Of a DNA stretch of 56,249 bases, positions 195-52,282 are shown piece after piece. The notes beneath the pieces are model-generated. The model searched no databases. It was not told the origin of the DNA and saw only the letters and a list, made by a program, of their open reading frames with translations. The stretch comes from Candidatus Kaiserbacteria bacterium. GTDB lineage: Bacteria > Patescibacteriota > Minisyncoccia > Phycocordibacterales > UBA2100. The DNA lies in the NCBI GenBank assembly GCA_016186695.1, contig JACPLC010000009.1:1-56249 (forward strand), read 5' to 3'. Both the position numbers and the translations under genes were made by a program. Numbering within the stretch: the stretch's first letter is position 1; each line of letters opens with the position of its first letter.

Positions 195-236
195 CCCCTC
201 CTTCGCTCCTGCGGAGCTACGGACGGGCAGGCGCCG
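195..236. repeat. Family-B GC-rich repeat, truncated intergenic copy
   Basis: cccctccttcgctcctgcggagctacggacgggcaggcgccg shares the ccctccttcgc...gctacggacggg core with the copies inside uvrA, carA and carB. Confidence 0.6.
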
Positions 237-3824: not shown

Positions 3825-4244
3825 ATGAATAAAGTAGTTATTGGAGTCGTTGTGATTATCATTATCGCTATCGGAGCATGGTACGTCTTGGGTGCTCAAA
3901 AGGCAGAAGCGCCGACGACGAGCGGCTACGCGTGGCAATTTACCGAGCTTCCGGAAAGTGCTACAGCTCCCGACATGCCAAGAACGGGTGTCGTGTTGGA
4001 GGCCGCGGGTAAAACGTACGTTGTAGGAGAATTCGACGGTTCGTGTTTCGTGATCGAGGAATCCGAATGGGAACTCGTGGAGGGTGAGAAATCGGGCGTC
4101 ATCTGCTGGTGGGCAGGCGGTGGCAGCGAAGTCGGCATCTTCGAAGAAAGTGGAAAGATAGCCGTCAAGGTAGGGCAGCTCGACGAAGGCACCGCCGAAG
4201 GCGGCGGCATCCGCGGCAACTTCCAGCTTCTTTTTGAAATTTGA
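3825..4244 (+). CDS. Hypothetical membrane-anchored protein
   Basis: N-terminal TM helix (VVIGVVVIIIIAIGAWYVL) followed by an acidic soluble domain. No family recognised. Confidence 0.5.
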   Translation: MNKVVIGVVVIIIIAIGAWYVLGAQKAEAPTTSGYAWQFTELPESATAPDMPRTGVVLEAAGKTYVVGEFDGSCFVIEESEWELVEGEKSGVICWWAGGGSEVGIFEESGKIAVKVGQLDEGTAEGGGIRGNFQLLFEI

Positions 4245-4309
4245 CACCTGCCTGCCGCAGGCAGGCTTTGACAAAGTATCTCAAAACCGGTACTCTTTTG
4301 GCTTACTAT

Positions 4310-5710
4310 ATGGCCAAAAAAGGCTTTAAAGTTGTCAAGTTCGGCGGTACCTCGATGGGCTCCAAGGAAGCGATCGAACGGGTGATCTCCATTGTCAGCA
4401 AGCCGCAAAAGCCCGCCCGACCGAACGGTCGTTCGGGCGGGGATGCGCGCATTGTCGCTGTTGTCGTTTCCGCGATGAGCGGTGTTACCGATCAGCTGAT
4501 CAAGATTGCCAGCGTTGCATCGCATAAGGATCCATCGTACAAAAAACTGCTCACAAGGCTCGAGCGGCGTCACCTTGAGACGCTGAACAAGCTCGTAAAC
4601 GCAAAAAATCGCGCGCACTCCCAAGAAGTCATTCACCGGACGTTCCGCTACCTCAATGAAGCGGTGACGGGTGTTGCACTCATGCGTGATCTTTCACCAC
4701 AAACGTTTGATTACGTCGTGAGCTATGGTGAACGTCTTTCTGCACATCTGCTCACAGAAGTGTTGAACGACAGGGGCATTGCATGTGAATATTTGAACGC
4801 ACGCAAAGTGATAACGACGGACGATCATTTCGGCGCGGCGTTTGTGGATTTCAAAACGACGAATGTAAATATCAAAAAGTATTTTCGCGCTCACAGGAAA
4901 CTCCAAATCGTGACGGGCTACATCGGTGCAACGCGCGACAAGAAAACGACGACGCTTGGACGCGGCGGGAGCGATTACAGCGCGGCAATTTTTGGTGCTG
5001 CGCTCGGAGCGAAGGCCATAGAAATTTGGACGGATGTTTCGGGCGTGTATACCGCCGATCCGCGGTTGGTGAAAGGTGCCAAGGTCGTACCGGAGCTTGC
5101 GTTCGAAGAAGCGGGGGAGCTCGCCTACTTTGGCGCGAAGGTCTTGCATCCAAAAACCATTTTGCCGGCGATGCGCGAGAAGATCCCCGTGCGCGTGTTG
5201 AATACGTTCAGACCTTCCGACAAGGGGACAACGATCGTCGCGGGCTTCGCCGAGCGCCGAAGCCGTAGCCACACGGTGGAGGCGCTTACGTTCAAGCGTC
5301 CTGTAATCGTTATCCACCTGCATTCTCCCGAATTTTTCGACTCGAACGGCTTGATGGCAGGGATATTTGAAGTATTCGACCGCTATCGCACGAGCATCGA
5401 CATCGTGGCGACGTCTGTCGCGGGCGTTTCTCTCACCATCGACGACGACAAGCATCTTCTCGAGATCGTGCGGGGTCTCAAAAAGTATGGAGATGTCAGC
5501 GTCGAGTGGAGGAAAGCTATTGTGTGTGCCGTGGGAGGAAGTGTGAATGCCGCGGGTGTCGCGGGCAAAATGTTCACGGTGCTCGGGAAGCGCGGGATTC
5601 CTGTCGAGCTTATTTCGCAAGCTGCCTCAGGCGTCTCGATCACATTTGTCGTTCGCGAACGCGACGCCGAAAAGGCGCTCAAAGTTCTGCACCGCGAGTA
5701 CATACGGTGA
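4310..5710 (+). CDS. lysC: Aspartate kinase
   Basis: VVKFGGTSMGS signature, amino-acid-kinase fold motifs and C-terminal ACT-like region. Promoter TTGACA (4268-4273)-17-TACTCT upstream. Confidence 0.9.
   Translation: MAKKGFKVVKFGGTSMGSKEAIERVISIVSKPQKPARPNGRSGGDARIVAVVVSAMSGVTDQLIKIASVASHKDPSYKKLLTRLERRHLETLNKLVNAKNRAHSQEVIHRTFRYLNEAVTGVALMRDLSPQTFDYVVSYGERLSAHLLTEVLNDRGIACEYLNARKVITTDDHFGAAFVDFKTTNVNIKKYFRAHRKLQIVTGYIGATRDKKTTTLGRGGSDYSAAIFGAALGAKAIEIWTDVSGVYTADPRLVKGAKVVPELAFEEAGELAYFGAKVLHPKTILPAMREKIPVRVLNTFRPSDKGTTIVAGFAERRSRSHTVEALTFKRPVIVIHLHSPEFFDSNGLMAGIFEVFDRYRTSIDIVATSVAGVSLTIDDDKHLLEIVRGLKKYGDVSVEWRKAIVCAVGGSVNAAGVAGKMFTVLGKRGIPVELISQAASGVSITFVVRERDAEKALKVLHREYIR
4412..4442. repeat. 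Family-A hairpin repeat inserted in frame in lysC
   Basis: cccgcccgaccgaacggtcgttcgggcgggg encodes ...PARPNGRSGG... at a position where aspartokinases run straight into the VVVSAM motif. Confidence 0.75.
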
Positions 5711-17871: not shown

Positions 17872-17887
17872 AACACCTTATATGCTT

Positions 17888-17907
17888 ATTCGCGCGAATT
17901 AGAATAT
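17888..17907. repeat. Intergenic copy of the AATTCGCGCGAATTAGAATAT palindromic repeat
   Basis: The 20-mer attcgcgcgaattagaatat is identical to 48025-48044 inside uvrC. Confidence 0.7.
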
Positions 17908-17946
17908 GGTTATTAGCATCGTTGTGCACAGGTTTGTTGCAGAGGC

Positions 17947-35497: not shown

Positions 35498-35591
35498 ATA
35501 CGTGCGGTATCTAGTACAGTACTCCGATGGCAGGTTTCCCCGGTACCACAAGTCCTCCGGACTTGGCTACGGGGCAGGCAAACTTTTGTCT

Positions 35592-37658
35592 ATGAAATCT
35601 TCGAACATATTTACATTGAAGAGCGATTATCGACCCGCTGGAGATCAGCCGAAGGCTATTGAGGCGCTTGTAGACGGGCTTGAGAAAGGGAAGCGAGATC
35701 AGACGCTTCTCGGTGTTACCGGCTCGGGAAAGACCTTTACGGTGGCCAACGTCATCCAAAAATGGCAGAAACCGACGCTTGTCATCGCGCACAACAAGAC
35801 GCTCGCGGCACAGCTTGCCGCGGAGTATCGCGAATTCTTTCCCAAGAATGCAGTCCACTACTTCGTTTCCTATTACGACTTCTACCAGCCGGAAGCGTAC
35901 GTACCTATTACCGATACCTATATCGAGAAAGAGGCACAGATCAACGAGGACATCGAGCGCCTCCGGCATGCGGCGACGCAGGCACTCCTGACGCGTAGTG
36001 ATGTCATCATCGTCGCTTCGGTTTCTTGCATCTACGGCCTCGGCTCGCCGGTAGAATACGAAAAGGTCAATCTCAAGCTCAGAAAGGGCGAGGCAATGAC
36101 GCGCGCGACCTTGACGCGCAAACTCATCTCTATTTATTTCGAACGCACAGCAGGCGACCTTTCGCCGGGTACCTTCCGCGCGCTCGGGAGCCGCGTCGAG
36201 TTGATGCCCGCGAGCGAGCGGGTCATTTACCGGCTCGACCTCACCGGCGGGAAGATCGCAAAGATGGAGGAGATCGATGCAACGACGAGGGAGATTGGCG
36301 CGAAGCATGATGCGATTTTCGTATTTCCTGCGCGGCAGTACGTGACACCGAAAGATGTGCAGGACGCCGCGCTTGCCGACATAGAGTTGGAGCTTGCCGA
36401 GCGACTCAAGATACTGAACGCCGCAGGGAAAATCCTCGAGGCAGAGCGCTTGAAACGACGCACGCGGCAGGACATTGCGATGATCCGCGAGTTCGGTTTT
36501 TGTAGCGGGATCGAGAACTACTCGCGACACTTCGACCGCCGAAAGCCCGGCGAGCCGCCCTACACGCTTTTGGATTATTTTCCACACGACAAAGAGGGGA
36601 AGCCCGAATTTCTCACCGTTATCGATGAATCGCATGTGACCGTCCCGCAGATCGGCGGCATGTACGCGGGCGATCGGTCGCGCAAGCAGACGCTCGTCGA
36701 GCACGGTTTCAGGCTTCCGAGTGCCGTCGACAATCGCCCGCTCATGTTTGAAGAATTCGAAAAGCGGATAGGGCAGATCATGTACACGTCGGCGACCCCC
36801 GCGGCGTACGAACTTTCGCGAAGCGGTACGCCTGTGGAGCAGGTCATCAGACCAACCGGACTCGTCGATCCCGAGATCATCGTTCGCCCGATTGTCAGTG
36901 AAAAGGGGGAGATCGTATCTCCCGATATATCGGGAGATACGATCTCCCGACATCCCTATCCGGGGCAGGTAAAAGATTTCATTGCCGAGGCCGAGGCAGT
37001 GACAAAGCGCGGCGCACGTTCGATGGTCACGGTGCTAACGAAGAAGATGGCAGAAGACCTGACGCAGTTTCTCGTGGAGCGCGGCGTAAAGGCCCGCTAC
37101 GTGCATAGCGATGTGAAGACCATCGAGCGTATCGAGATTCTGCGAGATTTCCGGAAAGGCGTGTTCGATGTGCTGGTCGGCGTCAATCTCCTGCGAGAAG
37201 GGCTCGATCTGCCGGAAGTGGAACTCGTCGGCATACTGGACGCCGACAAAGAGGGATTCCTGCGCAGCGAAACATCGCTCATCCAAACCATCGGCCGCGC
37301 GGCGAGGAACGTGCGCGGCCGCGTGATTCTCTACGCCGACACCTCGACTGGCTCGATGGAGCGTGCGATAGGCGAGACGAACCGCCGGCGCGAGATTCAG
37401 ATCACCTACAACAAGGCGCACAAGATCACGCCAAAAACCATCGAGAAACGCATCCACGACATCGTGGGCGACATCGAACGCTCGCGGAGACGCGCGATAC
37501 AGGAGCTCACGCGGATGGACACGCATGCGTTCGCCGGCGATACGGAGAAATTGGTCAAAGAAAAGCGCAGGCAGATGCATGAGGCTGCCGACCGTCTCGA
37601 CTTCGAGACAGCGGCTCTTATTCGTGATGAAATTAGAGCACTGGAGCAGGCCAAGTAG
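35592..37658 (+). CDS. uvrB: Excinuclease ABC subunit B
   Basis: GDQPKAIEAL, GVTGSGKTFT, DESH, helicase motifs, C-terminal UVR domain (LDFETAALIRDEIRALE). Confidence 0.93.
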   Translation: MKSSNIFTLKSDYRPAGDQPKAIEALVDGLEKGKRDQTLLGVTGSGKTFTVANVIQKWQKPTLVIAHNKTLAAQLAAEYREFFPKNAVHYFVSYYDFYQPEAYVPITDTYIEKEAQINEDIERLRHAATQALLTRSDVIIVASVSCIYGLGSPVEYEKVNLKLRKGEAMTRATLTRKLISIYFERTAGDLSPGTFRALGSRVELMPASERVIYRLDLTGGKIAKMEEIDATTREIGAKHDAIFVFPARQYVTPKDVQDAALADIELELAERLKILNAAGKILEAERLKRRTRQDIAMIREFGFCSGIENYSRHFDRRKPGEPPYTLLDYFPHDKEGKPEFLTVIDESHVTVPQIGGMYAGDRSRKQTLVEHGFRLPSAVDNRPLMFEEFEKRIGQIMYTSATPAAYELSRSGTPVEQVIRPTGLVDPEIIVRPIVSEKGEIVSPDISGDTISRHPYPGQVKDFIAEAEAVTKRGARSMVTVLTKKMAEDLTQFLVERGVKARYVHSDVKTIERIEILRDFRKGVFDVLVGVNLLREGLDLPEVELVGILDADKEGFLRSETSLIQTIGRAARNVRGRVILYADTSTGSMERAIGETNRRREIQITYNKAHKITPKTIEKRIHDIVGDIERSRRRAIQELTRMDTHAFAGDTEKLVKEKRRQMHEAADRLDFETAALIRDEIRALEQAK
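36907..36948. repeat. 42-bp perfect palindrome inserted in frame in uvrB
   Basis: gggagatcgtatctcccgata|tatcgggagatacgatctccc encodes ...GEIVSPDISGDTISR... between the conserved DPEI.VRP and the downstream domain. Confidence 0.85.
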
Positions 37659-39587: not shown

Positions 39588-39689
39588 TGCTCGCAAAAAG
39601 TGAAAGAGGCTGCACGTCGCGGCCTCTTGTTGTTTATGATAAACTTACCGCACCTACCCCCTGTCGCAAATCAGGGGCTAGTTTGCGTT

Positions 39690-42461
39690 ATGACACCAGC
39701 AAAAAAACACGACAGCGACCCCGACGCTTCGGTCGGGGCCGGCAAAATCGTGGTGAAGGGTGCCCGCACCCATAATTTGAAAAACGTAACGGTTGAGATA
39801 CCGCGCAATAAGATGGTGGTGTTCACGGGCTTGTCCGGAAGCGGGAAGTCGTCTTTGGCATTCGATACGATCTTCGCCGAAGGTCAGCGCAAATACGTCG
39901 AGTCGCTTTCGGCGTACGCGCGGCAGTTTTTGCGCCAGATGCAAAAGCCTGATGTCGACGAGATCTCCGGCCTTTCTCCGGCCATTTCGATAGACCAGAA
40001 GAGCCGCTCCAACAACCCCCGCTCGACGGTGGCGACTATCACGGAGATTTACGACTACCTGCGTGTGCTCTATGCGCGTATCGGCCATCCGCACTGCCCG
40101 ACCTGTGGCAGGGAAGTGAGGAAACTCTCGAACGAAGAAATCCTTGAAACGGTGCTTGGTATTGTCGAAATCGCCCGAAAACACACAGCGCCAAAAGGCA
40201 AGCTCACAAAAGGCGTTTCGAGCGCAAAGGTCCGCATCAGCGCCCCGATGGTTGTCGGCCGAAAAGGCGAGTACTACCAACTCCTCTACGACATGCTTAA
40301 CAAAGGCTTCGAGAAAGCTATTGTGGACGGACAGGAAAAGTCGCTCCGCGAGCGCATCGAGCTCAAGAAGCACTTTAAGCACGACATTGATATCGTGGTC
40401 GATGAGATCTTTGTCTCGGAGTTTGCCGACGACCCGAAGGGGGCGCGCGAGCGTGCAAGCGAAGCAATAGAGCGCGCACTGCACGAATCGGAGGGCCTCG
40501 TGCGCATTACCGATGCGGCAGGAGAATCGCACATTGTTTCTGCGAAATTCATGTGTGCATACGACGGTTTTTCGTTTCCCGAGATAGAACCCCGCCTCTT
40601 TTCATTTAATTCCCCCTACGGAGCGTGTCCTGAGTGCAAAGGTTTAGGCACCAAATACTTCTTTGGCGACGAACCGTGCGATGTATGCAGAGGCGCGCGG
40701 CTTCGTCCCGAATCGCTCAACGTTTTTCTCGGCCCCTCCTCCGCCCCGCCTTCGCGTAAAGCTACGGACGGGCGCGGCAAGGCTACGGAGGGCAAGGCGG
40801 TTACGGGGATGGACATTGTAAAACTCTCCTCGCTCTCCATCGAGCATGCAATGGATTTTTTCAAAAAGCTGAAGCTCTCGAAGAAAGACGAAGAGATTTC
40901 GCGGGTGGTTATCAAAGAGATCACGAGCCGCCTGCAGTTCATGCTCAATGTCGGCATCGAGTACCTCACGCTCGATCGGAAGGCAAATACACTCTCCGGC
41001 GGCGAAGCGCAACGCATCAGACTTGCTTCCCAGCTCGGGAGCGGGCTTGTGGGCGCGCTCTACGTCTTGGACGAACCGACGATAGGGCTTCACCAGCGCG
41101 ACAACGACAAGCTCATCGAGACGCTGAAACACCTGCGCGATTTGGGGAACACAGTTCTCGTGGTAGAGCACGACGAAGATACGATTTTTGCCTCCGACTA
41201 CATCATCGATCTAGGGGTAGGAGCCGGAATTCACGGCGGTAGTATCGTTGCCTCGGGCTGGCTCGATCCTCTGCTTACGGCAAAAACCCTGAAGGAAATC
41301 CGCCAAAGGGCGGATTCCTACGGGGCAGGCGAACAAATCTCTCGGACGTTGCAGTACTTGAGAGGAGAATTGAAGATCGAGATGCCGGAGAAACGGCGCG
41401 CGGCAGACCGCGGCAAAATAAAGATCCGCGGCGCATCGAAGTTCAATCTCAACAAAATGAACGTGGACGTTCCGCTCGTAAAACTGGTCTGCGTCACCGG
41501 CGTATCCGGCTCGGGCAAATCCACCTTTCTCTACGAAATCCTCCATCGCAATTTACTGGCACGCTTCGATAAGCGCTATCGGAGCGCGAAGACCTACAAT
41601 GCTGCCGAGTTTTCGGGAACGGAATATCTTAGCCGTTCCATCCTTATCGACCAGTCGCCGATAGGCCGCACTCCGCGCTCGAATCCGGCGACCTACACTG
41701 GCGCATGGACGCACATCCGAGACATGTTTGCGATGAGTGAGGAGGCGCGTGCGCGCGGCTGGGGGCCGGGGCGCTTTTCTTTCAATGTGAAAGGCGGCCG
41801 ATGCGAGGCGTGTCAGGGGAACGGGCTCGTCGCTGTCGAGATGCACTTTTTGCCGACCGTCTATGTGACGTGCGACGTATGCAACGGCAAGCGATTTATG
41901 AAAGAGACATTGGAGGTGAAGATTAAAGGAAATACAAGAACCCGCCCGAACGACCGGTCGTCCGGTCGGGCGGGAAAGAGCATTCACGACATTCTCTCGA
42001 TGACGGTCGAGGAAGCGGGAAAATTTTTCGAGGACATTCCGGCAATCGCAGATCGTTTACAGACGCTCTCGGACGTCGGTCTTGATTACCTCGAGCTCGG
42101 CCAGAGCGCGACGACGCTCTCCGGCGGCGAGGCACAGCGCGTTAAAATTGCTTCAGAACTCTATCGGCCGCTCACGACGAAGACCATCTACCTTCTCGAC
42201 GAGCCGACCGTGGGTCTCCACTACGATGACGTCGCAAAACTCATCCAGATCCTGCAGAAGCTCGTCGAGCGCGGAAACACAGTCGTCGTGATTGAGCACA
42301 ACCTTGATGTTTTAAAGTGCGCAGATTACATCATCGACCTCGGCCCCGAGGGCGGCGCCGGCGGCGGCACAGTTGTCGCCAAAGGCACACCGGAGGAAGT
42401 CTCAAAAACCGACAGCTCGCACACGGGGTACTACCTCAAGCGTGTTCTTAAGAAGCGCTAA
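39690..42461 (+). CDS. uvrA: Excinuclease ABC subunit A
   Basis: GARTHNLKN, GLSGSGKSSLAFDTI, two ABC modules, zinc-finger cysteines (CPTCG, CPECKG, CEACQGNG...CDVCNG), LSGGEAQR x2. Confidence 0.93.
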   Translation: MTPAKKHDSDPDASVGAGKIVVKGARTHNLKNVTVEIPRNKMVVFTGLSGSGKSSLAFDTIFAEGQRKYVESLSAYARQFLRQMQKPDVDEISGLSPAISIDQKSRSNNPRSTVATITEIYDYLRVLYARIGHPHCPTCGREVRKLSNEEILETVLGIVEIARKHTAPKGKLTKGVSSAKVRISAPMVVGRKGEYYQLLYDMLNKGFEKAIVDGQEKSLRERIELKKHFKHDIDIVVDEIFVSEFADDPKGARERASEAIERALHESEGLVRITDAAGESHIVSAKFMCAYDGFSFPEIEPRLFSFNSPYGACPECKGLGTKYFFGDEPCDVCRGARLRPESLNVFLGPSSAPPSRKATDGRGKATEGKAVTGMDIVKLSSLSIEHAMDFFKKLKLSKKDEEISRVVIKEITSRLQFMLNVGIEYLTLDRKANTLSGGEAQRIRLASQLGSGLVGALYVLDEPTIGLHQRDNDKLIETLKHLRDLGNTVLVVEHDEDTIFASDYIIDLGVGAGIHGGSIVASGWLDPLLTAKTLKEIRQRADSYGAGEQISRTLQYLRGELKIEMPEKRRAADRGKIKIRGASKFNLNKMNVDVPLVKLVCVTGVSGSGKSTFLYEILHRNLLARFDKRYRSAKTYNAAEFSGTEYLSRSILIDQSPIGRTPRSNPATYTGAWTHIRDMFAMSEEARARGWGPGRFSFNVKGGRCEACQGNGLVAVEMHFLPTVYVTCDVCNGKRFMKETLEVKIKGNTRTRPNDRSSGRAGKSIHDILSMTVEEAGKFFEDIPAIADRLQTLSDVGLDYLELGQSATTLSGGEAQRVKIASELYRPLTTKTIYLLDEPTVGLHYDDVAKLIQILQKLVERGNTVVVIEHNLDVLKCADYIIDLGPEGGAGGGTVVAKGTPEEVSKTDSSHTGYYLKRVLKKR
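40733..40800. repeat. Family-B repeat inserted in frame in uvrA
   Basis: cccctcctccgccccgccttcgcgtaaagctacggacgggcgcggcaaggctacggagggcaaggcgg encodes PSSAPPSRKATDGRGKATEGKA. Confidence 0.75.
41941..41974. repeat. Family-A hairpin repeat (inverted orientation) inserted in frame in uvrA
   Basis: cccgcccgaacgaccggtcgtccggtcgggcggg is the reverse complement of the uvrC/tRNA copy minus 2 nt. It encodes TRPNDRSSGRAG between the conserved ...LEVKIKG and KSI.D.L.MTVEEA. Confidence 0.8.
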
Positions 42462-45400
42462 GCGCGGTACTCAGACCAGGACTTTGCTTTTAATCCGTTT
42501 CCTTTTTGCTCATGCAGCGCGGTCACGAATGCTTCGGCGAGCTGGCGATTCGTGATGAGGGGAATGTTCATGTCGATTGCTTTGCGGCGGATGATGAAAC
42601 CGTCGGTATTTTCGCGCTCATAGGCGCGCGTGGGAATATTTATAATGAGATCGATCGCGCCTTGCTCCATGAGCGAGAGGACGTTTGGTTCCTGTCCGGT
42701 ACTGATTTTGAATACCTTTTCGCAGGGAACGCCGTTGGCGGCAAGGAAATCGGCCGTATGCTCAGTCGCGAAGAGTTTGAATTTCATATTCACGAGCATT
42801 TGCATTGCCGGCAAAAGCTTTAATTTGTTTTCCTCTTTTCCGAGGGAGACGAGGACGTTTCGCTTGGGCAGCCTGAAACCGGCTGCGAGCATGGATTTGA
42901 GAAGCGCCTCGCCGTAAGAATCACCGAAGCAAGCGACCTCACCCGTCGAGGCCATCTCGACGAACGAGCGCGGATCGGCGCCCTTGATGCGGCCGTATGA
43001 AAACTGTGGCGATTTTACGGCGACGTAGTCGAGTTCGAGCGTGCGGTACCGTTCTTTCGTTCCTTCGCCGAGCATCGCGCGCGTCGCGATATCAATGAAG
43101 TTGTGGCCGGTTACTTTTGAAACGAAGGGGAACGAGCGCGAGGCGCGTACGTTGCACTCGATAACCTGCAGGCGATTGTCTTTCGCAATGAATTGCACGT
43201 TGAAGGGGCCCGTTATCTTGAGCTCGCGGACGATCGCTTTCGTTACGTCTTTTACGCGGCGAATCGTCTCGAGGTACGTGCGCTGTGGCGGCAAGACGAC
43301 GGTCGCGTCGCCGGAGTGTGTACCCGCGTTTTCGACGTGTTCTGTAATTGCGTAGATGAGCAGCGAGCCGCGCGCGGCGACGCCGTCTATCTCTATCTCA
43401 CGCGCATTTTCGATGAATTTTGAGATGACGACGGGGTGATCGGGTGAAACGTCTGCCGCGCGCTTGAGATATTTCAGCAGCGACTCGCGGTTTAAAGCAA
43501 CGCTCATCGCGGCGCCCGATAGTACGTATGAGGGTCGCACGAGCACGGGGTAGCCAAATTTTTCAGCAGCTTTGACGGCCGCGCTCGGGCTCGTGAGCTC
43601 TGCCCATGCCGGCTGGTCGACGTCGAGCGTGTCGAGGAGTTTCGAGAACGCATGGCGATTTTCGGCGCGATCAATATTGCGCGGGTCGGTGCCAAAAACA
43701 TGAACGCCCGCTTTTTGAAGGGGAAGTGCGAGGTTGTTCGGTATCTGGCCACCGGTCGAGACGACGACACCTTTCGGCTTTTCAAACTCCACGATATCCA
43801 AGACACGCTCCAGCGAAAGCTCCTCGAAGTACAGCCGGTCCGACATATCGTAATCGGTCGAGACGGTCTCGGGATTCGAATTTATCATGATGGTCTCATA
43901 CCCTTTTTCGCCGAGCGTGCGGAGCGCCTGCACGCCCGACCAGTCGAATTCTACCGACGAGCCGATCGCATACGGGCCGCTGCCAAGCACGATTGCCTGA
44001 TTTTTCCCATGCTCGATATCGTGTTCTGCTCCGTGGTAGGTGAGGTAGAGGTAGTTTGTCTTTGCCGGAAATTCGCCCGCCAAGGTATCTATCTGTTTGA
44101 TGGAAGGCAGTACGCCGAGCTTCTTGCGAAGCGCACGTACCTTTGCCTCGTTTGTCTTTTTAAGTGCGGCGATATCGCGATCGGAAAAACCTTTTTGTTT
44201 GGCTTCGCGCATGAGCGCCGGCGTGAGTTTGCCGCGGCGCAATTTTGCTTCGAGCTCAACGATATTTTTTATCTTCTCGAGAAACCACACATCAATGTGC
44301 GAAAGCTGGTGGATTTTCCCGACCGATACGCCTTTTCGCAGTGCCCCAAAGATCGCGTGGATGCGATTCGTGGTCGGGTGCCGTATATCCTCCAAAAGTG
44401 CGCCGACCGGCCGTGCAAGATAAGCTTTGTCCAAAGGGACGTTCAGCATGCGGAGCGCTTTCTGCAAGACCTCCTCAAAACTCCGGCCGATTGCCATGAC
44501 CTCACCGACACTCTTCATCTCGCTTCCGATCTTTGATGTCGCGTTATCGAATTTCGTAATGTCCCAGCGTGGAACTTTGAGGACGAGATAATCGAGCGCG
44601 GGTTCGAAGCACGCGGTGGTCTGTTTTGTCACTGAATTTTTCAGCTCTGGGAGTGTATACCCAAGCGCGAGCTTCGCTGCGACATGTGCGAGCGGATAAC
44701 CGGTCGCCTTGGAGGCAAGCGCCGAGGAGCGCGAGAGGCGTGCGTTCACCTCTATAACGCGGTAGTCGCCTGTTTTGGGGTGGAGTGCGTACTGAATGTT
44801 GCACTCGCCGACGATGCCAAGATGCCTAATGACTCGTATCGCGATCCCCCGCAAGGCATGGTACTCCTGATTGTTTAGCGTCTGCGAAGGAGCAACCACG
44901 AATGATTCACCGGTGTGAATGCCCATCGGATCGATGTTCTCCATGTTGCACACCGTGATGCAGTTGTCGGCGCGGTCGCGCACTACTTCGTATTCGATTT
45001 CTTTCCAGCCGCCGACGTATTCCTCGATGAGAACCTGCGGCGTCGAGCGGAACACTTCTTTGAGCTTTTCGGAGAGCATTTTTGCGTCCCGCACAACACC
45101 CGATCCTTCGCCCCCCAAGGCAAATCCTGCACGCATCATGAGAGGGTAGCCGATTTCCTCAGCCGCTTTCAGCGCAGCGGAAATAGTTGATGCGGCGCGG
45201 CTCTTCGGTGTTGATACATTGATTTCGTTCAGTCGCCGTACAAAGAGATCGCGGTCTTCCGTGTCGCGGATTGCCGCAACAGGCGTACCGAGCACGCGTA
45301 CCCCGTACTTTTTTAGCGTGCCGCTCTTTTCGAGCGCGAGACCGAGGTTGAGCGCGGTCTGGCCGCCGAAGCCGAGGAGGATGCCATCAGGCCGCTCTTT

Positions 45401-45697
45401 TTTGATGACCTGCACGGCGAACTGTTCGGTAAGAGGCAGGAAGTAGACGGTGTCAGCGAGTTTCTCACCCTCCTTCGCCCCGTCCTTCGCATGAAGCTTC
45501 GGAGGGCGCGGCAAGGCTCCGAAGGGCAGGTCCGTCTGAATCGTCGCAATGTTGGGATTGATGAGAACCACCTTCACGCCCTCCTCTTTGAGGGCTTTGA
45601 TAGCCTGCGAGCCGGAGTAATCGAATTCGCCGGCCTGGCCTATTTTCAAGCCTCCGCTTCCAAGTATGAGAACTTTTTTTGGTTTGCGCATACTCAT
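42458..45697 (-). CDS. carB: Carbamoyl-phosphate synthase large subunit
   Basis: 1079 aa. GQAGEFDYSGSQA, two ATP-grasp halves, MGS-like C-terminus. Confidence 0.95.
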   Translation of the reverse strand: MSMRKPKKVLILGSGGLKIGQAGEFDYSGSQAIKALKEEGVKVVLINPNIATIQTDLPFGALPRPPKLHAKDGAKEGEKLADTVYFLPLTEQFAVQVIKKERPDGILLGFGGQTALNLGLALEKSGTLKKYGVRVLGTPVAAIRDTEDRDLFVRRLNEINVSTPKSRAASTISAALKAAEEIGYPLMMRAGFALGGEGSGVVRDAKMLSEKLKEVFRSTPQVLIEEYVGGWKEIEYEVVRDRADNCITVCNMENIDPMGIHTGESFVVAPSQTLNNQEYHALRGIAIRVIRHLGIVGECNIQYALHPKTGDYRVIEVNARLSRSSALASKATGYPLAHVAAKLALGYTLPELKNSVTKQTTACFEPALDYLVLKVPRWDITKFDNATSKIGSEMKSVGEVMAIGRSFEEVLQKALRMLNVPLDKAYLARPVGALLEDIRHPTTNRIHAIFGALRKGVSVGKIHQLSHIDVWFLEKIKNIVELEAKLRRGKLTPALMREAKQKGFSDRDIAALKKTNEAKVRALRKKLGVLPSIKQIDTLAGEFPAKTNYLYLTYHGAEHDIEHGKNQAIVLGSGPYAIGSSVEFDWSGVQALRTLGEKGYETIMINSNPETVSTDYDMSDRLYFEELSLERVLDIVEFEKPKGVVVSTGGQIPNNLALPLQKAGVHVFGTDPRNIDRAENRHAFSKLLDTLDVDQPAWAELTSPSAAVKAAEKFGYPVLVRPSYVLSGAAMSVALNRESLLKYLKRAADVSPDHPVVISKFIENAREIEIDGVAARGSLLIYAITEHVENAGTHSGDATVVLPPQRTYLETIRRVKDVTKAIVRELKITGPFNVQFIAKDNRLQVIECNVRASRSFPFVSKVTGHNFIDIATRAMLGEGTKERYRTLELDYVAVKSPQFSYGRIKGADPRSFVEMASTGEVACFGDSYGEALLKSMLAAGFRLPKRNVLVSLGKEENKLKLLPAMQMLVNMKFKLFATEHTADFLAANGVPCEKVFKISTGQEPNVLSLMEQGAIDLIINIPTRAYERENTDGFIIRRKAIDMNIPLITNRQLAEAFVTALHEQKGNGLKAKSWSEYRA
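45468..45530. repeat. Family-B repeat inserted in frame in carB (antisense orientation relative to the gene)
   Basis: ccctccttcgccccgtccttcgcatgaagcttcggagggcgcggcaaggctccgaagggcagg. The gene-sense translation LPFGALPRPPKLHAKDGAKEGEK interrupts the conserved ...IATIQTD / LADTVYF. Confidence 0.75.
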
Positions 45698-46827
45698 TTC
45701 TTAAGGCTCGCGATGAATTCGTCGAAAATCCACGCCGTATCAGTGGGGCCCGGAGATGCCTCGGGGTGAAATTGCACCGAGCGCCATGGCTTCGTTTTGT
45801 GGAGCATGCCCTCATTGCTGTCGTCGTTAGCATTTACAAACCACTCCTCCCAGCCCGCGGGCAGTGATTTCCCGTCTACCGCGTATCCGTGGTTTTGCGA
45901 GGTGATGTAACACCTGCCCTTCGTAGCTTTACTGTGTCCGTCCGAAGCCTTGCGCGAAGGAGGAGCGAAGGAGGGGCGGCCTATGAGGTCGATACAAGGT
46001 TGATTTTGCGAACGATGCCCGTACTTCAGCTTGTATGTCTTTGCACCTGCGGCGAGGGCAAGAAGCTGATTGCCGAGGCACACGCCGAGGATGGGCTTGT
46101 TCTCTTTCATCGCAGCGCGGATGTGCTCAATCGTTTTTTCGGCCATGATCGGATCGCCGGGACCGTTCGAAATGAGAAGGCCGTGGTATCTTTCTTTTGA
46201 GAAGTCGTAATCCCACGGTACGCGGATGACGGTCGCGCCGCGCGTGAGCAAGGAGCGCACAATGTTTTCTTTCATCCCGCAGTCGACTGCAATGATCTTG
46301 ATGCGGCCCTTGCCGTATATTTTTTTCTTTTTTATGCTGACGCGCGCGACGAGATTCTCCTGATTCGGATCTTTAAATATGGACACGCCGTGTCCATATT
46401 TTGTACTAGAAAGATACCCGAGTATCACACCGTGCTCGCGCAGTCGTTTCGTGAGCGCGCGGGTGTCTACACCACTCATCGCGGGAACACCTGATTTTTT
46501 CAGCCAATCGGCAAGTGAGCGCTTGGCGGTTGCATGCGAGTATTTTTCGGAATATTCGGATACGACGAGGCCCGCAATTTGAATTTTCCGCGACTCGAAA
46601 GGAGAGGCGTCGGGCTTGCCCTCCGAAGCCTTGGCGAAGGAGGGAACGCCGTAGTTGCCGATGAGGGGATAGGTACACACTAGTATTTGTCCGGCATACG
46701 ATGGATCCGTAAAAGCTTCGGGGTAACCAACCATGCCGGTCGCGAAGACAACCTCGCCGGCGACCGAGCGGTTTGCACCAAAACTCTTGCCCTCGATAGT
46801 CGTACCGTCTTTTAACAACAATTTCAT
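45694..46827 (-). CDS. carA: Carbamoyl-phosphate synthase small subunit (glutaminase)
   Basis: LLKDGTTIEGKSFG, TDPSYAGQI, GVCLGNQ (catalytic Cys), QFHPE. 4-nt overlap with carB. Confidence 0.92.
   Translation of the reverse strand: MKLLLKDGTTIEGKSFGANRSVAGEVVFATGMVGYPEAFTDPSYAGQILVCTYPLIGNYGVPSFAKASEGKPDASPFESRKIQIAGLVVSEYSEKYSHATAKRSLADWLKKSGVPAMSGVDTRALTKRLREHGVILGYLSSTKYGHGVSIFKDPNQENLVARVSIKKKKIYGKGRIKIIAVDCGMKENIVRSLLTRGATVIRVPWDYDFSKERYHGLLISNGPGDPIMAEKTIEHIRAAMKENKPILGVCLGNQLLALAAGAKTYKLKYGHRSQNQPCIDLIGRPSFAPPSRKASDGHSKATKGRCYITSQNHGYAVDGKSLPAGWEEWFVNANDDSNEGMLHKTKPWRSVQFHPEASPGPTDTAWIFDEFIASLKK
45913..45975. repeat. Family-B repeat inserted in frame in carA (copy 1)
   Basis: The gene-sense translation RPSFAPPSRKASDGHSKATKG interrupts the conserved GHRSQNQP..D...G / YITSQNHGYAV. 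Confidence 0.75.
46596..46645. repeat. Family-B repeat (short variant) inserted in frame in carA (copy 2)
   Basis: The gene-sense sequence ccctccttcgccaaggcttcggagggcaag... encodes PSFAKASEGKPDASP, inserted after the conserved IGNYGV. Confidence 0.7.
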
Positions 46828-46836
46828 ATGCAAATA

Positions 46837-46857
46837 TATGGATGTGCGACATCCATA
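46837..46857. promoter_or_regulatory. 21-bp palindrome immediately upstream of carA (candidate operator or 5' hairpin)
   Basis: tatggatgt-gcg-acatccata, 10-30 nt upstream of the carA ATG (46827). Confidence 0.4.
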
Positions 46858-46870
46858 ATATTCGGGTTAG

Positions 46871-46893
46871 AAAAAAGCCCGCTTTCGGCGGGC
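46871..46893 (-). terminator. Rho-independent terminator (minus strand)
   Basis: On the minus strand, gcccgc-cgaaa-gcgggc is followed by tttttt. Confidence 0.65.
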
Positions 46894-46982
46894 GTGAGCC
46901 TGGAGTAGAAAAATACACCCTCGCGGGTGTCCTTGTGTATCAACCTCTTGGAGTCCATTAAAGCCCAAGCTTATCTGTATGC

Positions 46983-47354
46983 TTACAAAAAGTCAAGGCC
47001 GAAAAAAGCCCCGGGAAGTGTCCGGGGCTTCGCAGTGCACTTACCGATCATCGTGCGGAAAATCGGATTGTAGAACAGAATACGACTACATTCGAATCGC
47101 GTACGGAAAAGGGCATCTCCGAGATTTACGGAGTCTTTTTCCATAAAGAACCGATCTCCTTTACAATCCAGCATGATGCCGACACGACCTCTGCCGTCGA
47201 AGGACAACACAAGACCATTGGATTCGCACTCGATTAGAGTCTCGTTCGCGATTGCCTGTTTCCAGTCGGCGAAAATCAAGATTGTAGCAACCGCAATACC
47301 CATAGCGACGACACCGATGACAAGGATGTGTTTAAGTCGCATGACCGTCTCCAC
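46983..47354 (-). CDS. Hypothetical membrane-anchored protein
   Basis: N-terminal TM helix (ILVIGVVAMGIAVATILIF). The start is GTG 47354 or ATG 47342 (GGAGA Shine-Dalgarno). No family recognised. Confidence 0.4.
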   Translation of the reverse strand: METVMRLKHILVIGVVAMGIAVATILIFADWKQAIANETLIECESNGLVLSFDGRGRVGIMLDCKGDRFFMEKDSVNLGDALFRTRFECSRILFYNPIFRTMIGKCTAKPRTLPGAFFGLDFL

Positions 47355-47462: not shown

Positions 47463-48785
47463 ATGATTCGAAGAGAACTTAAAAAATACAGGTTGCCGGA
47501 TGGGCCGGGAGTATACCTCTTCAAAAAAGGGCGGAAAATCCTGTATATAGGCAAGGCAGCATCTCTCCGTGACAGAGTGCGAAGCTACTTTTCTGCGGAT
47601 CTCGTGAATGGTCGAGGACAGGCCATTGTTGGTATGGTAGATGATGCCACGTCTGTTTCCTACCAAAAAACGGATTCTGTCTTGGAAGCACTTCTCCTCG
47701 AAGCGAGTCTTATAAAGCGTCATCAACCTCCTTTCAATATCGAGCAGAAAGACAACAAAAGCTGGAACTACGTTGTCATCACGAAGGAACCCGCCCGACC
47801 GGACGACTCCGGTCGTTCGGGCGGGGCTTTTCCGCGGGTTCTCATTGTTCGCGGTCGCGAACTGTATCAGGGGTGGGACAAGGCTGATATCAAACACCTC
47901 TTCGGACCGTTCCCGCACGGCGGGCAGTTGCGTGATGCAATGAAAATGGTCCGCCGGATATTTCCATTTCGCGACAGATGCACACCATGCGACGGGCAAC
48001 TTCGTCGAACAACACCACATTCTAATTCGCGCGAATTAGAATATAAGGATGGGAAAGTTCGGGAATGCAAACCGTGTTTTAATCGGCAGATTGGTTTGTG
48101 TCCCGGCGTGTGCTCGGGCGAAATGACAAAAGAAAAATACGCACAGACGATTCGCAGCATCCGCGAGCTCTTCTCAGGTAATTTCAAAGGCTTGAAGCGC
48201 CGGCTTGCGCGCGAAATGAAGGAGGCTGTAAAGCGCGAGGACTTTGAGGAGGCGGAGAAACTGCGCAGGCAGATCTCTGCGCTTGAACACGTGCGCGATG
48301 TCTCGCTCATTAAGAATGAAAAGCTTGTTTCTGCCGGTGGTGGAACGCGCATCGAAGCGTTTGACATCGCACACACTGCAGGGAAGGAGACTGTCGGCGT
48401 GATGACCGTCCTCGACAACGGCGAGCCATACAAAGCAGCGTACAGAAAGTTCAACGTCCGAACGGCAACGAACGATGATATTGCCGCACTGAAAGAAGTT
48501 TTGTCGCGCCGCCTGAATCATTCCGAGTGGCCTCTGCCGCGTGTTTTCGTTGTCGACGGCGGCAAGGCGCAACTGCGGGCCGCGGGCATTGTGCTGAAAA
48601 GCGCGGGCGTTATGATTCCTGTTGTCGGTGTCGTGAAAGACGAATTTCACCGTCCGGAACGGGTGATAGGCGATGAACGCATGATTCAGGCGCACGAACG
48701 CGATATTTTACTTGCCAACAATGAAGCCCACCGGTTTGCCATCGGATTTCACCGCGCACGCCAGCGAAAAAGTTTTGGACGGTGA
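47463..48785 (+). CDS. uvrC: Excinuclease ABC subunit C, short form lacking the C-terminal (HhH)2 domain
   Basis: GIY-YIG domain (GPGVYLFKKGRKILYIGKA...LLEASLIKRHQPPFN), UVR domain (FEEAEKLRRQISALEHV), nuclease domain ending ...NEAHRFAIGFHRARQRK. Confidence 0.88.
   Translation: MIRRELKKYRLPDGPGVYLFKKGRKILYIGKAASLRDRVRSYFSADLVNGRGQAIVGMVDDATSVSYQKTDSVLEALLLEASLIKRHQPPFNIEQKDNKSWNYVVITKEPARPDDSGRSGGAFPRVLIVRGRELYQGWDKADIKHLFGPFPHGGQLRDAMKMVRRIFPFRDRCTPCDGQLRRTTPHSNSRELEYKDGKVRECKPCFNRQIGLCPGVCSGEMTKEKYAQTIRSIRELFSGNFKGLKRRLAREMKEAVKREDFEEAEKLRRQISALEHVRDVSLIKNEKLVSAGGGTRIEAFDIAHTAGKETVGVMTVLDNGEPYKAAYRKFNVRTATNDDIAALKEVLSRRLNHSEWPLPRVFVVDGGKAQLRAAGIVLKSAGVMIPVVGVVKDEFHRPERVIGDERMIQAHERDILLANNEAHRFAIGFHRARQRKSFGR
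47790..47825. repeat. Family-A hairpin repeat inserted in frame in uvrC
   Basis: cccgcccgaccggacgactccggtcgttcgggcggg is identical to 51900-51935. It encodes PARPDDSGRSGG between the conserved ITKE and FPRV. Confidence 0.85.
48019..48042. repeat. 24-bp perfect palindrome inserted in frame in uvrC
   Basis: attctaattcgc|gcgaattagaat encodes HSNSRELE. Its 20-mer core recurs at 17888-17907. Confidence 0.8.
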
Positions 48786-51879: not shown

Positions 51880-51955
51880 GGGCCAGTAGTTCAGTGGTAC
51901 CCGCCCGACCGGACGACTCCGGTCGTTCGGGCGGGGAGCGTCTCATTTGCAATGT
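51880..51955 (+). pseudogene. 5'-half relic of a tRNA-Ala(UGC)-like gene, D-loop disrupted by a family-A repeat
   Basis: GGGCCAGTAGTTCAGTGGTA[36-nt repeat]GAGCGTCTCATTTGCAATGT aligns with positions 1-41 of the intact tRNA-Ala downstream. No T-arm or 3' acceptor follows. Confidence 0.7.
51900..51935. repeat. Family-A hairpin repeat inside the tRNA relic
   Basis: 36/36 identical to 47790-47825. Confidence 0.85.
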
Positions 51956-52198
51956 ATGCGATACGTTGTCTATGTTCTGAGAGACTCAGCTGGCCATCTG
52001 TATAAAGGGATGACGCGAGATTTACCAAATCGCTTGAAAGAGCATCGGAAGGGTACAACGCGAACTACTTCTCGAATGAAGGATCTGTCTGTTGCGTATA
52101 CCGAAGAGTTTGATACGTTTGATGCTGCAAGAAAACGAGAGCTTTACTTCAAATCAGCTGCGGGGAGACGTTTTCTTGCAAAGAAGCTGGGCCCTTAG
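51956..52198 (+). CDS. Stand-alone GIY-YIG nuclease-domain protein (80 aa)
   Basis: YVVYVLRDSAGHLYKGMTRDLPNRLKEHRKG...AARKRELYFKS. The stop overlaps nt 8-10 of the tRNA-Ala. Confidence 0.75.
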   Translation: MRYVVYVLRDSAGHLYKGMTRDLPNRLKEHRKGTTRTTSRMKDLSVAYTEEFDTFDAARKRELYFKSAAGRRFLAKKLGP

Positions 52199-52261
52199 CT
52201 TAGTTGGTAGAGCGCCACATTTGCAATGTGGAGGTCACCGGTTCGAATCCGGTAGGGTCCA
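52189..52261 (+). tRNA. tRNA-Ala (anticodon UGC)
   Basis: Hand-folded cloverleaf: acceptor GGGCCCT/AGGGTCC with G3:U70, D-arm GCTT/GAGC, anticodon arm CCACA-TTTGCAA-TGTGG, variable loop AGGTC, T-arm ACCGG-TTCGAAT-CCGGT, discriminator A. No encoded CCA. Confidence 0.9.
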
Positions 52262-52282
52262 CAAAACTGGTATCATGGTGGT

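Follow-up and report, generated by a model that had tools for sequence, protein, structure and literature searches.

How do short hairpin-forming repeats come to lie in frame within the essential genes of a bacterium, and what might carry them there? The question is raised by a 56,249-nucleotide contig of a Candidatus Kaiserbacteria bacterium (JACPLC010000009.1, hereinafter the window), a member of the candidate phyla radiation (CPR), in which a GC-rich repeat that we term family B occurs at five loci, of which one lies between genes, one is in uvrA, two are in carA and the last is antisense to carB. The initial annotation likened these copies to the Rickettsia palindromic elements (RPEs), namely a mobile palindromic element that is kept translatable where it has entered genes. 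Our analysis leads to a related but more specific reading, which we regard as reasonably probable: family B is a mobile hairpin, short and non-autonomous, comparable to the RPEs and the repetitive extragenic palindromic (REP) sequences, probably processed by a GIY-YIG nuclease and filtered by selection wherever its copies fall within genes.

A half-site scan of the window for CCCTCCTTCGC and GCTWCGGAGGG (at most four mismatches in total and a gap of 0–45 nt) returned matches at 196–226 (+), 40734–40792 (+), 45468–45526 (+), 45917–45975 (−) and 46619–46644 (−) and none besides in the 56 kb, as compared to 0–0.4 loci in first-order Markov shuffles. These are precisely the five loci of the initial annotation, and the insert peptides and interrupted motifs agree with those it quoted; only the interval of the short carA copy (46596–46645) had to be trimmed, as it included ~19 nt of non-repeat flank around a unit at ~46615–46644. 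Taken singly, the half-sites are likewise over-represented, with 12 matches to CCCTCCTTCGC (at most one mismatch) against 1.5 expected and five to AAGSYTWCGRAGGG against 0.29 expected. Since the three ~60-nt copies are nested doubles, the five loci hold eight units (Table 1). The host genes are genuine uvrA, carB and carA, as established by PDB searches with E-values down to 1e-284, and the homologs of the CarA protein are named Candidatus Kaiserbacteria and Patescibacteria.

Table 1. Family-B and family-A hairpins, their host genes and the GIY-YIG/tRNA locus in the window.
Feature	Coordinates	Strand	Remarks
Family-B unit, short form with 9-nt top, intergenic	196..232	+	Stop codon (181-183) 13 nt upstream
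Family-B nested double unit in uvrA, in frame, sense	40734..40797	+	Peptide PSSAPPSRKATDGRGKATEGK
Family-B nested double unit, antisense to carB	45467..45529	+	Precise 63-nt insertion between GAC and GAG; peptide LPFGALPRPPKLHAKDGAKEG
Family-B nested double unit, carA site 2, in frame, sense	45913..45975	-	After NQPCID; net +20 aa vs insert-free orthologs
Family-B single unit, carA site 1, in frame, sense	46615..46644	-	CCCTCCTTCGC-CAAG-GCTTCGGAGGG plus CAAG tail; after IGNYGVP; net +10 aa
uvrA host open reading frame	39600..42461	+	PDB search
carB host open reading frame	42458..45697	-	PDB search
carA host open reading frame	45694..46833	-	PDB search
Single-domain GIY-YIG nuclease gene, 80 aa	51956..52198	+	~30% identity to the B-linked clade
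Family-A hairpin, 36-nt near-perfect palindrome	51900..51935	+	Ends 20 nt before the GIY-YIG start codon
Intact tRNA-Ala(TGC)	52189..52262	+	5' end overlaps the last GIY-YIG codons
Family-A hairpin in uvrA, in frame	41941..41974	-	Peptide TRPNDRSSGRAG; absent in relative L002, same site filled in relative L208
Family-A hairpin in uvrC, precise 36-nt in-frame insertion	47790..47825	+	Peptide PARPDDSGRSGG; absent in relatives L001 and L002
Short variant of the family-A hairpin, in frame in an aspartate-kinase-family gene (open reading frame 4241-5710)	4412..4441	+	

The comparison with insert-free orthologs, which had been proposed as a check, uncovered precise presence–absence patterns among relatives for carB, uvrA and carA; the insertions in the window are clean and their lengths are multiples of three. 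In carB, the GAC and GAG codons on either side of the 63 nt are uninterrupted in three relatives. In the alignment with Thermotoga UvrA, the uvrA insert exactly separates two matching blocks, and the ortholog from relative L002 has a different, shorter loop at this site (it is also devoid of the family-A insert considered below). The carA copy at 45913–45975 appears as a 20-aa gap against human CPS1, and insert-free CarA orthologs are 342–345 aa long. At site 1 the empty form VP-DKKF-FES becomes VP-SFAKASEGKPDASP-FES upon filling, and at site 2 CID-VTTG-RCY becomes CID-LIGRPSFAPPSRKASDGHSKATKG-RCY. Among 120 CarA orthologs, 18 carry an insert at site 1 and ~26 carry one at site 2, where the filler is family B, a second repeat family (LRQSSGQ... 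/ PFDSAQG) or other inserts; on a neighbor-joining tree built from 341 well-occupied columns, these patterns require at least 15 and at least 25 changes of state, respectively. The core peptide of the insert, SFAKASEGKP, is more conserved than its flanks in CarA. The AlphaFold2 model of CarA shows pLDDT values below 50 exactly at residues 67–71 and 286–301, which lie between β-strands, suggesting that both carA inserts form floppy surface loops. In seven CarA orthologs from other lineages, the site-2 loop carries LRQSSGQADT, GRPFDSAQG or a 36-aa insert beginning CEVWRGAKRAPEAHRQTLQRGQP; as it is filled by differing repeat-like inserts, this loop is a hotspot for several hairpin families.

Two candidate explanations were set aside. 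An assembly artefact is incompatible with the recurrence of the same inserts in independent assemblies and cultured isolates. A miniature inverted-repeat transposable element, with insertion-sequence terminal inverted repeats, a target-site duplication and a length of 70–300 bp, does not match units of 26–63 nt whose junctions bear no duplication.

The family-B unit is ~26–33 nt long, with the architecture CCCTCC-TTC-GC-top-GC-TWC-GGAGGG, usually followed by CARG. It thus comprises a 6-bp outer stem (CCCTCC/GGAGGG), a 3×3 internal loop with TTC opposite TWC, a GC:GC step and, at the top, a hairpin that varies between copies. The predicted fold of the 26-nt unit, ((((((...((....))...)))))), has an RNA free energy of −11 to −13 kcal/mol (z −2 to −3.3) and is also predicted for DNA, albeit with lower stability. 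In the ~60-nt copies of uvrA, carB and carA site 2, a second unit is nested directly after the 5′ arm of the first, an arrangement that recurs in other phyla (for example, at four further loci). Folded in their entirety as DNA, these long copies do no better than shuffles; hence, we abandoned the idea of a long palindrome in favor of nested short hairpins. Accordingly, the term palindromic in the initial annotation overstates the symmetry of the element: the 26-nt unit does fold as a hairpin, but its conserved asymmetric internal loop is at odds with a plain palindrome.

The pairing itself is under evident constraint. Among 64 copies with 4-nt tops (CAAG 25, TAAA 17, TGAA 15, CGAG 4), the first and last bases of the top are complementary in 62, alternating between C-G and T-A. 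Longer tops are unrelated in sequence and still form stems, with a mean stem of 2.8 as compared to 0.66 in shuffled tops. Covariation was assessed on 28 copies upstream of GIY-YIG genes that were anchored on their inner part only, so that the outer stem was not pre-selected. The outer stem takes diverse forms in this set—CCCTCC/GGAGGG, TCCGCC/GGCGGA, CCCTTC/GAAGGG, ACCTGC/GCAGGT and GTCCCC/GGGGAC—with 94% of the cells paired and double-sided changes at five of the nine pairs. The cells with such changes number 36, against 9.7±4.1 in shuffles (none of 500 reaching the observed value), and slid controls are just 32–63% paired. The covariation of the hairpin is therefore strong. The window and L002 have orthologous copies at carA site 1, whose tops differ by the change from CAAG to TAAA, a compensatory substitution that is also synonymous. 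At its gathering threshold, Rfam recognizes only tRNA-Ala in the whole window, and by E-value threshold it returns chance-level matches alone in 45400–46700; thus, family B is not a curated RNA family. A full-text literature search with the exact arm sequences of family B recovered only primers and unrelated sequences.

Family B extends far beyond this host. The pattern CCCTCCTTCGC-N(1-31)-GCTWCGGASGG, run on contigs of one genome per species, matched at least 120 stretches, so that the family is carried by the genomes of no fewer than 120 species belonging to more than 10 phyla. The matches listed include Patescibacteria, Saccharibacteria, Alpha-, Beta- and Deltaproteobacteria, Bacteroidota, Verrucomicrobiota, Planctomycetota, Nitrospirota, Acidobacteriota, Armatimonadota and others, with cultured isolates of Mesorhizobium, Brevundimonas and Flagellimonas among the carriers; the gap is exactly 4 nt in half of the matches listed. 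The initial annotation would have been undone had the segments been lineage-specific loops with no nucleotide-level repeat identity outside the window; instead, the same repeat is encountered in many phyla. The unit has ~69% GC, while the hosts of the CPR loci have 37–57% and the carriers across all phyla range from 37 to ~70%. In nine Nitrospira-like and related genomes, the flanks of the B locus are themselves conserved and contain further half-site-like motifs, CTCCGAAGC upstream and CCCCGTAGC downstream; the unit may be part of a larger conserved element there.

Family-B elements lie inside long open frames in 47% of cases, as compared to 76% of random positions. The Pfam-verified genic copies all come from CPR genomes and interrupt genes for an IleRS-like protein, SerRS, DUF763, alanine racemase, a P-type ATPase, Fpg, NUDIX, AHSA1-like and ComF-like proteins. 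Together with the window and relative L205, these bring the independent sites to nine in sense and five in antisense orientation. At every one of the nine, the 3′ arm is read as AAR-GCT-WCG-GAS-GGN, i.e., K-A-S/T-E/D/K-G. As two or all three of the frames are open, this amounts to a frame bias, with p ~0.004 under a model with probability 1/2 and ~1.5e-4 under one with 1/3. The proposal of an inserted, RPE-like repeat kept in genes where it can be translated is thus supported by its presence–absence patterns, its two orientations, its intergenic copies, its spread over unrelated CPR genes and its single frame.

Clustering of the open reading frames (ORFs) within 1.5 kb of family B, for the 120 loci listed, yielded a single enriched family: small GIY-YIG proteins of 81–86 aa, with PF01541 as their only domain, whose genes adjoin B in 17 of these loci. 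No RAYT-like or other transposase emerged from this clustering of the surroundings of the loci listed. The usual order is a tRNA or tmRNA gene, then the B hairpin, then the GIY-YIG gene, all co-oriented. The proteins form a clade with the motif FE.YLKSGSG.AF..KRLW and 38–68% identity across phyla. The converse test started from 80 metagenome loci picked by the GIY-YIG protein profile alone, 68 of which had upstream sequence. Of these, 40 have B no more than 400 nt upstream of the gene, mostly ending 10–18 nt before the start, where the copy overlaps the ribosome-binding region; the orientation is CCCTCCGWAGC..GCGAAGGAGGG on the gene strand in 47 of 54. A tRNA or tmRNA gene of varying identity ends ~95–300 nt upstream of the GIY-YIG gene in 44 of the 68 loci, and in every one of the 44 it is co-oriented. 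Such ~80-aa GIY-YIG genes trailing tRNA or tmRNA genes are found at numerous loci across phyla, and the literature searched offers no description of them. Looked for on phages and plasmids, the B-linked clade had no members on the former and gave one weak match on a Cupriavidus chromid; NCBIfam gave no usable match for the proteins, and among solved structures the UPF0213 proteins 1YWL and 1ZG2 come closest, both as weak matches.

The window itself encodes a GIY-YIG protein of a different clade, with homologs throughout the CPR, and this gene is preceded by a hairpin of another family, here termed A. Family A is a near-perfect palindrome of 30–36 nt, CCCGCCCGACCGGACGACTCCGGTCGTTCGGGCGGG, with a DNA fold z of −4.1, and its copies in uvrC, uvrA and an aspartate-kinase-family gene parallel those of family B (Table 1). 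The copy before the GIY-YIG gene divides a remnant 5′ half of tRNA-Ala (51880–51899 and 51936–51955). The same tRNA-Ala/hairpin-A/GIY-YIG layout is seen in five of five distinct CPR relatives, usually after uvrC-ddl, and the stem of A covaries among relatives (CCGG/CCGG vs CTGA/TCAG). Hence, there are two GIY-YIG clades, the window clade with A and the B-linked clade with B, each with a gene-dispersed hairpin family at the same position, and the window protein is a candidate hairpin-processing enzyme. Its ORF begins where the anticodon loop of tRNA-Ala aligns, and its last codons double as the acceptor stem of the intact tRNA; lying between a duplicated 5′ half of tRNA-Ala and the intact tRNA-Ala, it resembles an insertion that brings a replacement 5′ half with it.

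We propose the following scenario for family B, drawing in part on precedents from the related enzymes discussed below. A master copy would be the B unit situated just 5′ of the tiny GIY-YIG gene behind a tRNA or tmRNA gene, in many phyla. The nuclease, probably an Ssn-like GIY-YIG enzyme acting on single strands, would recognize the folded hairpin in single-stranded DNA and nick beside it, as Ssn does with the NTS and SRM repeats. Nicking could then seed copies elsewhere, including in the top loop of an existing copy, which would generate the ~60-nt nested form. In compact CPR genomes, many insertions would fall within genes, and the survivors would be those with a length that is a multiple of three, a frame that is open and benign and a site in a tolerant surface loop. 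The copies in uvrA, carB and both sites of carA would be found where they are because they share these three properties.

Several observations weigh against this scenario. The junctions of the clean insertions show neither an evident target-site duplication nor an evident target consensus. The filled alleles of carA site 1 share altered flanks (xxPP for DKKF) and could have a single origin followed by spread through recombination. Family B is downstream of the GIY-YIG gene in just four of 73 loci (with three copies elsewhere), a one-sided placement unlike NTS-ssnA-NTS or REP-RAYT-REP, and the adjoining hairpin could be only a translational or terminator element. The SRM consensus HGTCWYN(0-2)YYVSBRHN(0-5)WNVSBRGN(0-2)RNCYNB has no match in the window, in the consensus of either B or A, or in the 500 nt around each of 17 GIY-YIG genes. 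The 56-kb window has no GIY-YIG gene of the B type, the one present being ~30% identical and bearing hairpin A. Finally, we infer the translation of the inserts, as we do the role of the GIY-YIG enzyme in mobilizing the hairpin.

The same placement over the ribosome-binding region on one side of the gene, the want of a B-clade nuclease gene in the window and of the SRM consensus in B, and the presence of B just upstream of carA in three relatives would all sit well with an alternative that we consider rather unlikely, namely that B is a selfish RPE- or REP-like hairpin to which the GIY-YIG gene is unrelated. Its mover would then be some other transposase or the replication and repair machinery of the host, and the adjoining hairpin would be a regulatory stem-loop of the gene or a favored landing site. 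Yet, in the 120 loci listed, the surroundings of B show no enrichment of any further ORF family, be it RAYT-like or not; two separate GIY-YIG clades each bear a gene-dispersed hairpin family at the same position; and relatives of this enzyme class do cut beside hairpin repeats (PMC11893778).

A role at the RNA level, for example with the Shine-Dalgarno-like GGAGG masked by the anti-Shine-Dalgarno-like CCUCC, or the hairpin serving as a transcription end or RNase site, and with the genic copies selected for their effect on the host mRNA, strikes us as quite improbable. It draws on the stability of the RNA fold (z −2 to −3.3), the location of the 3′ arm GGAGGG 10–18 nt before the GIY-YIG starts, the T-run that comes next on the reverse strand in Bacteroidota, after the tRNA or tmRNA gene, and the compensatory CAAG-to-TAAA change between the orthologous carA site-1 copies. 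Covariation, however, cannot separate RNA from single-stranded DNA, and the genic copies occur in both orientations at scattered positions in unrelated genes, with close relatives managing without them. Least plausible, and largely refuted already by the existence of a nucleotide-level family, is the notion of lineage-specific protein loops under selection for protein function with secondary nucleotide similarity: the frame bias toward K-A-S/T-E/D/K-G in nine of nine sense sites and the conservation of SFAKASEGKP over the CarA flanks speak for it, but the same DNA is intergenic, antisense in genes and present in genomes of 37 to ~70% GC from many phyla, its synonymous positions covary so as to keep the stem, and the inserts are predicted to be disordered.

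We return to the reading of family B as a GIY-YIG-processed mobile hairpin and consider how it relates to known repeats. The analogy with the RPEs (RPE-1 and the REP-like RPE-4 and RPE-6) is sound: in both cases, a hairpin repeat lies in frame in housekeeping genes of a small-genome bacterium, varies in presence between relatives and counts repair genes among its hosts (PMC3733652). It remains an analogy, as the host is Kaiserbacteria-like and family B can be at most an RPE analogue; the taxon and probably the sequence differ, the B unit is far shorter than RPE-1, and B is near-identical across many phyla rather than confined to one genus. Di Nocera et al. (2013) catalogued the GTAG- and CGTC-tagged REPs, whose intragenic copies encode 20–30 aa, often in repair genes such as uvrA, and identified RPE-4 and RPE-6 as CGTC REPs (PMC3733652). 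Family B resembles these REPs in being a multicopy stem-loop within the 20–40 nt range, in which trinucleotides that do not pair separate the stem from the loop and the variable inner loop is closed by GC; it likewise forms dimers and clusters and has intragenic copies, which in the REPs encode 20–30 aa in uvrA/uvrB and similar genes. In contrast to them, it has no terminal unpaired GTAG or CGTC—the stem is flanked by CARG/CYTG or variable sequence, and GTAG occurs only within the internal loop of variants with W=A—and its associated gene codes for a GIY-YIG nuclease, with no RAYT-like enrichment in the loci listed.

The small GIY-YIG proteins termed Ssn (cd10448) were reported by Chenal et al. 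(2025) to cut single-stranded DNA beside the NTS/SRM hairpin repeats surrounding their genes, and these authors remark on the likeness of NTS/Ssn to IS200/IS605 and REP/RAYT (PMC11893778). Here too, a tiny single-domain GIY-YIG gene is physically linked to a hairpin repeat of which further copies are scattered over the genome, with distinct clades having distinct hairpins: B is upstream in 17 of the 120 loci listed and in 40 of 68 by the converse test, A is upstream in five of five relatives, and the proteins have 80–86 aa with PF01541 alone. The differences are that B is found only upstream of the gene at its start region, that the linkage to tRNA or tmRNA genes is tight, and that NTS is rarely genic (2%) while B and A are mostly genic here. 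The tRNA/tmRNA linkage does not figure in the account given in the Ssn paper (PMC11893778). Family B is best filed with hairpin repeats of the REP and SRM kind; its distribution is unusually wide and well conserved, and it has a candidate enzyme. A further likeness is to the left end of IS200/IS605 elements, where a hairpin 5′ of a small nuclease or transposase gene can hide the ribosome-binding site, hairpins are recognized in single strands and insertion proceeds without target duplication. These elements differ in using an HUH tyrosine transposase fold as against GIY-YIG, and a second end for B was not identified.

Rickettsia and a few REP-rich genomes are the main source of known in-frame hairpin repeats. 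The present case adds a sharply defined hairpin in genomes of 37 to ~70% GC from more than 10 phyla, a fixed position beside a candidate enzyme gene and numerous sites in essential genes that are cleanly filled or empty. A link between Ssn-like nucleases and repeat spread has become directly testable with oligonucleotides and one 80-aa protein. The inserts also explain one source of length variation in CPR proteins, and annotators should take these GC-rich islands in genes as repeats instead of assembly errors. Going further, we tentatively raise the possibility, which we would not yet call probable, that tRNA-linked small GIY-YIG nucleases mobilize a cross-phylum superfamily of REP-like hairpins as the GIY-YIG counterpart of RAYT/REP, and that in the CPR short peptides thereby keep being written into essential proteins, with the same permissive loops hit time and again.

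Some further features of the host genes and the window deserve mention. The UvrA of the window aligns with the Thermotoga protein in two blocks that skip residues ~305–421 of the reference and seems to be devoid of that inserted domain; it has an extra segment of ~13 aa, RQRADSYGAGEQI, that is missing from L002. The CarA of the window gives a far better match to the N-terminal part of human mitochondrial CPS1 (E 4e-106) than to E. coli CarA (8.5e-58). A conserved leader upstream of carA (window 46835–46990, − strand; also L002 3400–3520 and L205 9850–9960) displays the motif TTTAATGGACTCCA..GGTT and, after it, two hairpins resembling terminators. It may be a pyrimidine-responsive attenuator, but no part of it scored at the gathering level of Rfam; a family-B unit is located between this leader and the carA start codon in three relatives. 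Elsewhere in the window, a perfect 42-nt palindrome (GGGAGATCGTATCTCCCGATA/TATCGGGAGATACGATCTCCC) lies at 36907–36948 inside the ORF 35502–37658, and an AT-rich inverted pair of 35 nt (17876–17910 and 48014–48048), 30 kb apart and 91% complementary, contains the palindromic core TTCGCGCGAA in each copy.

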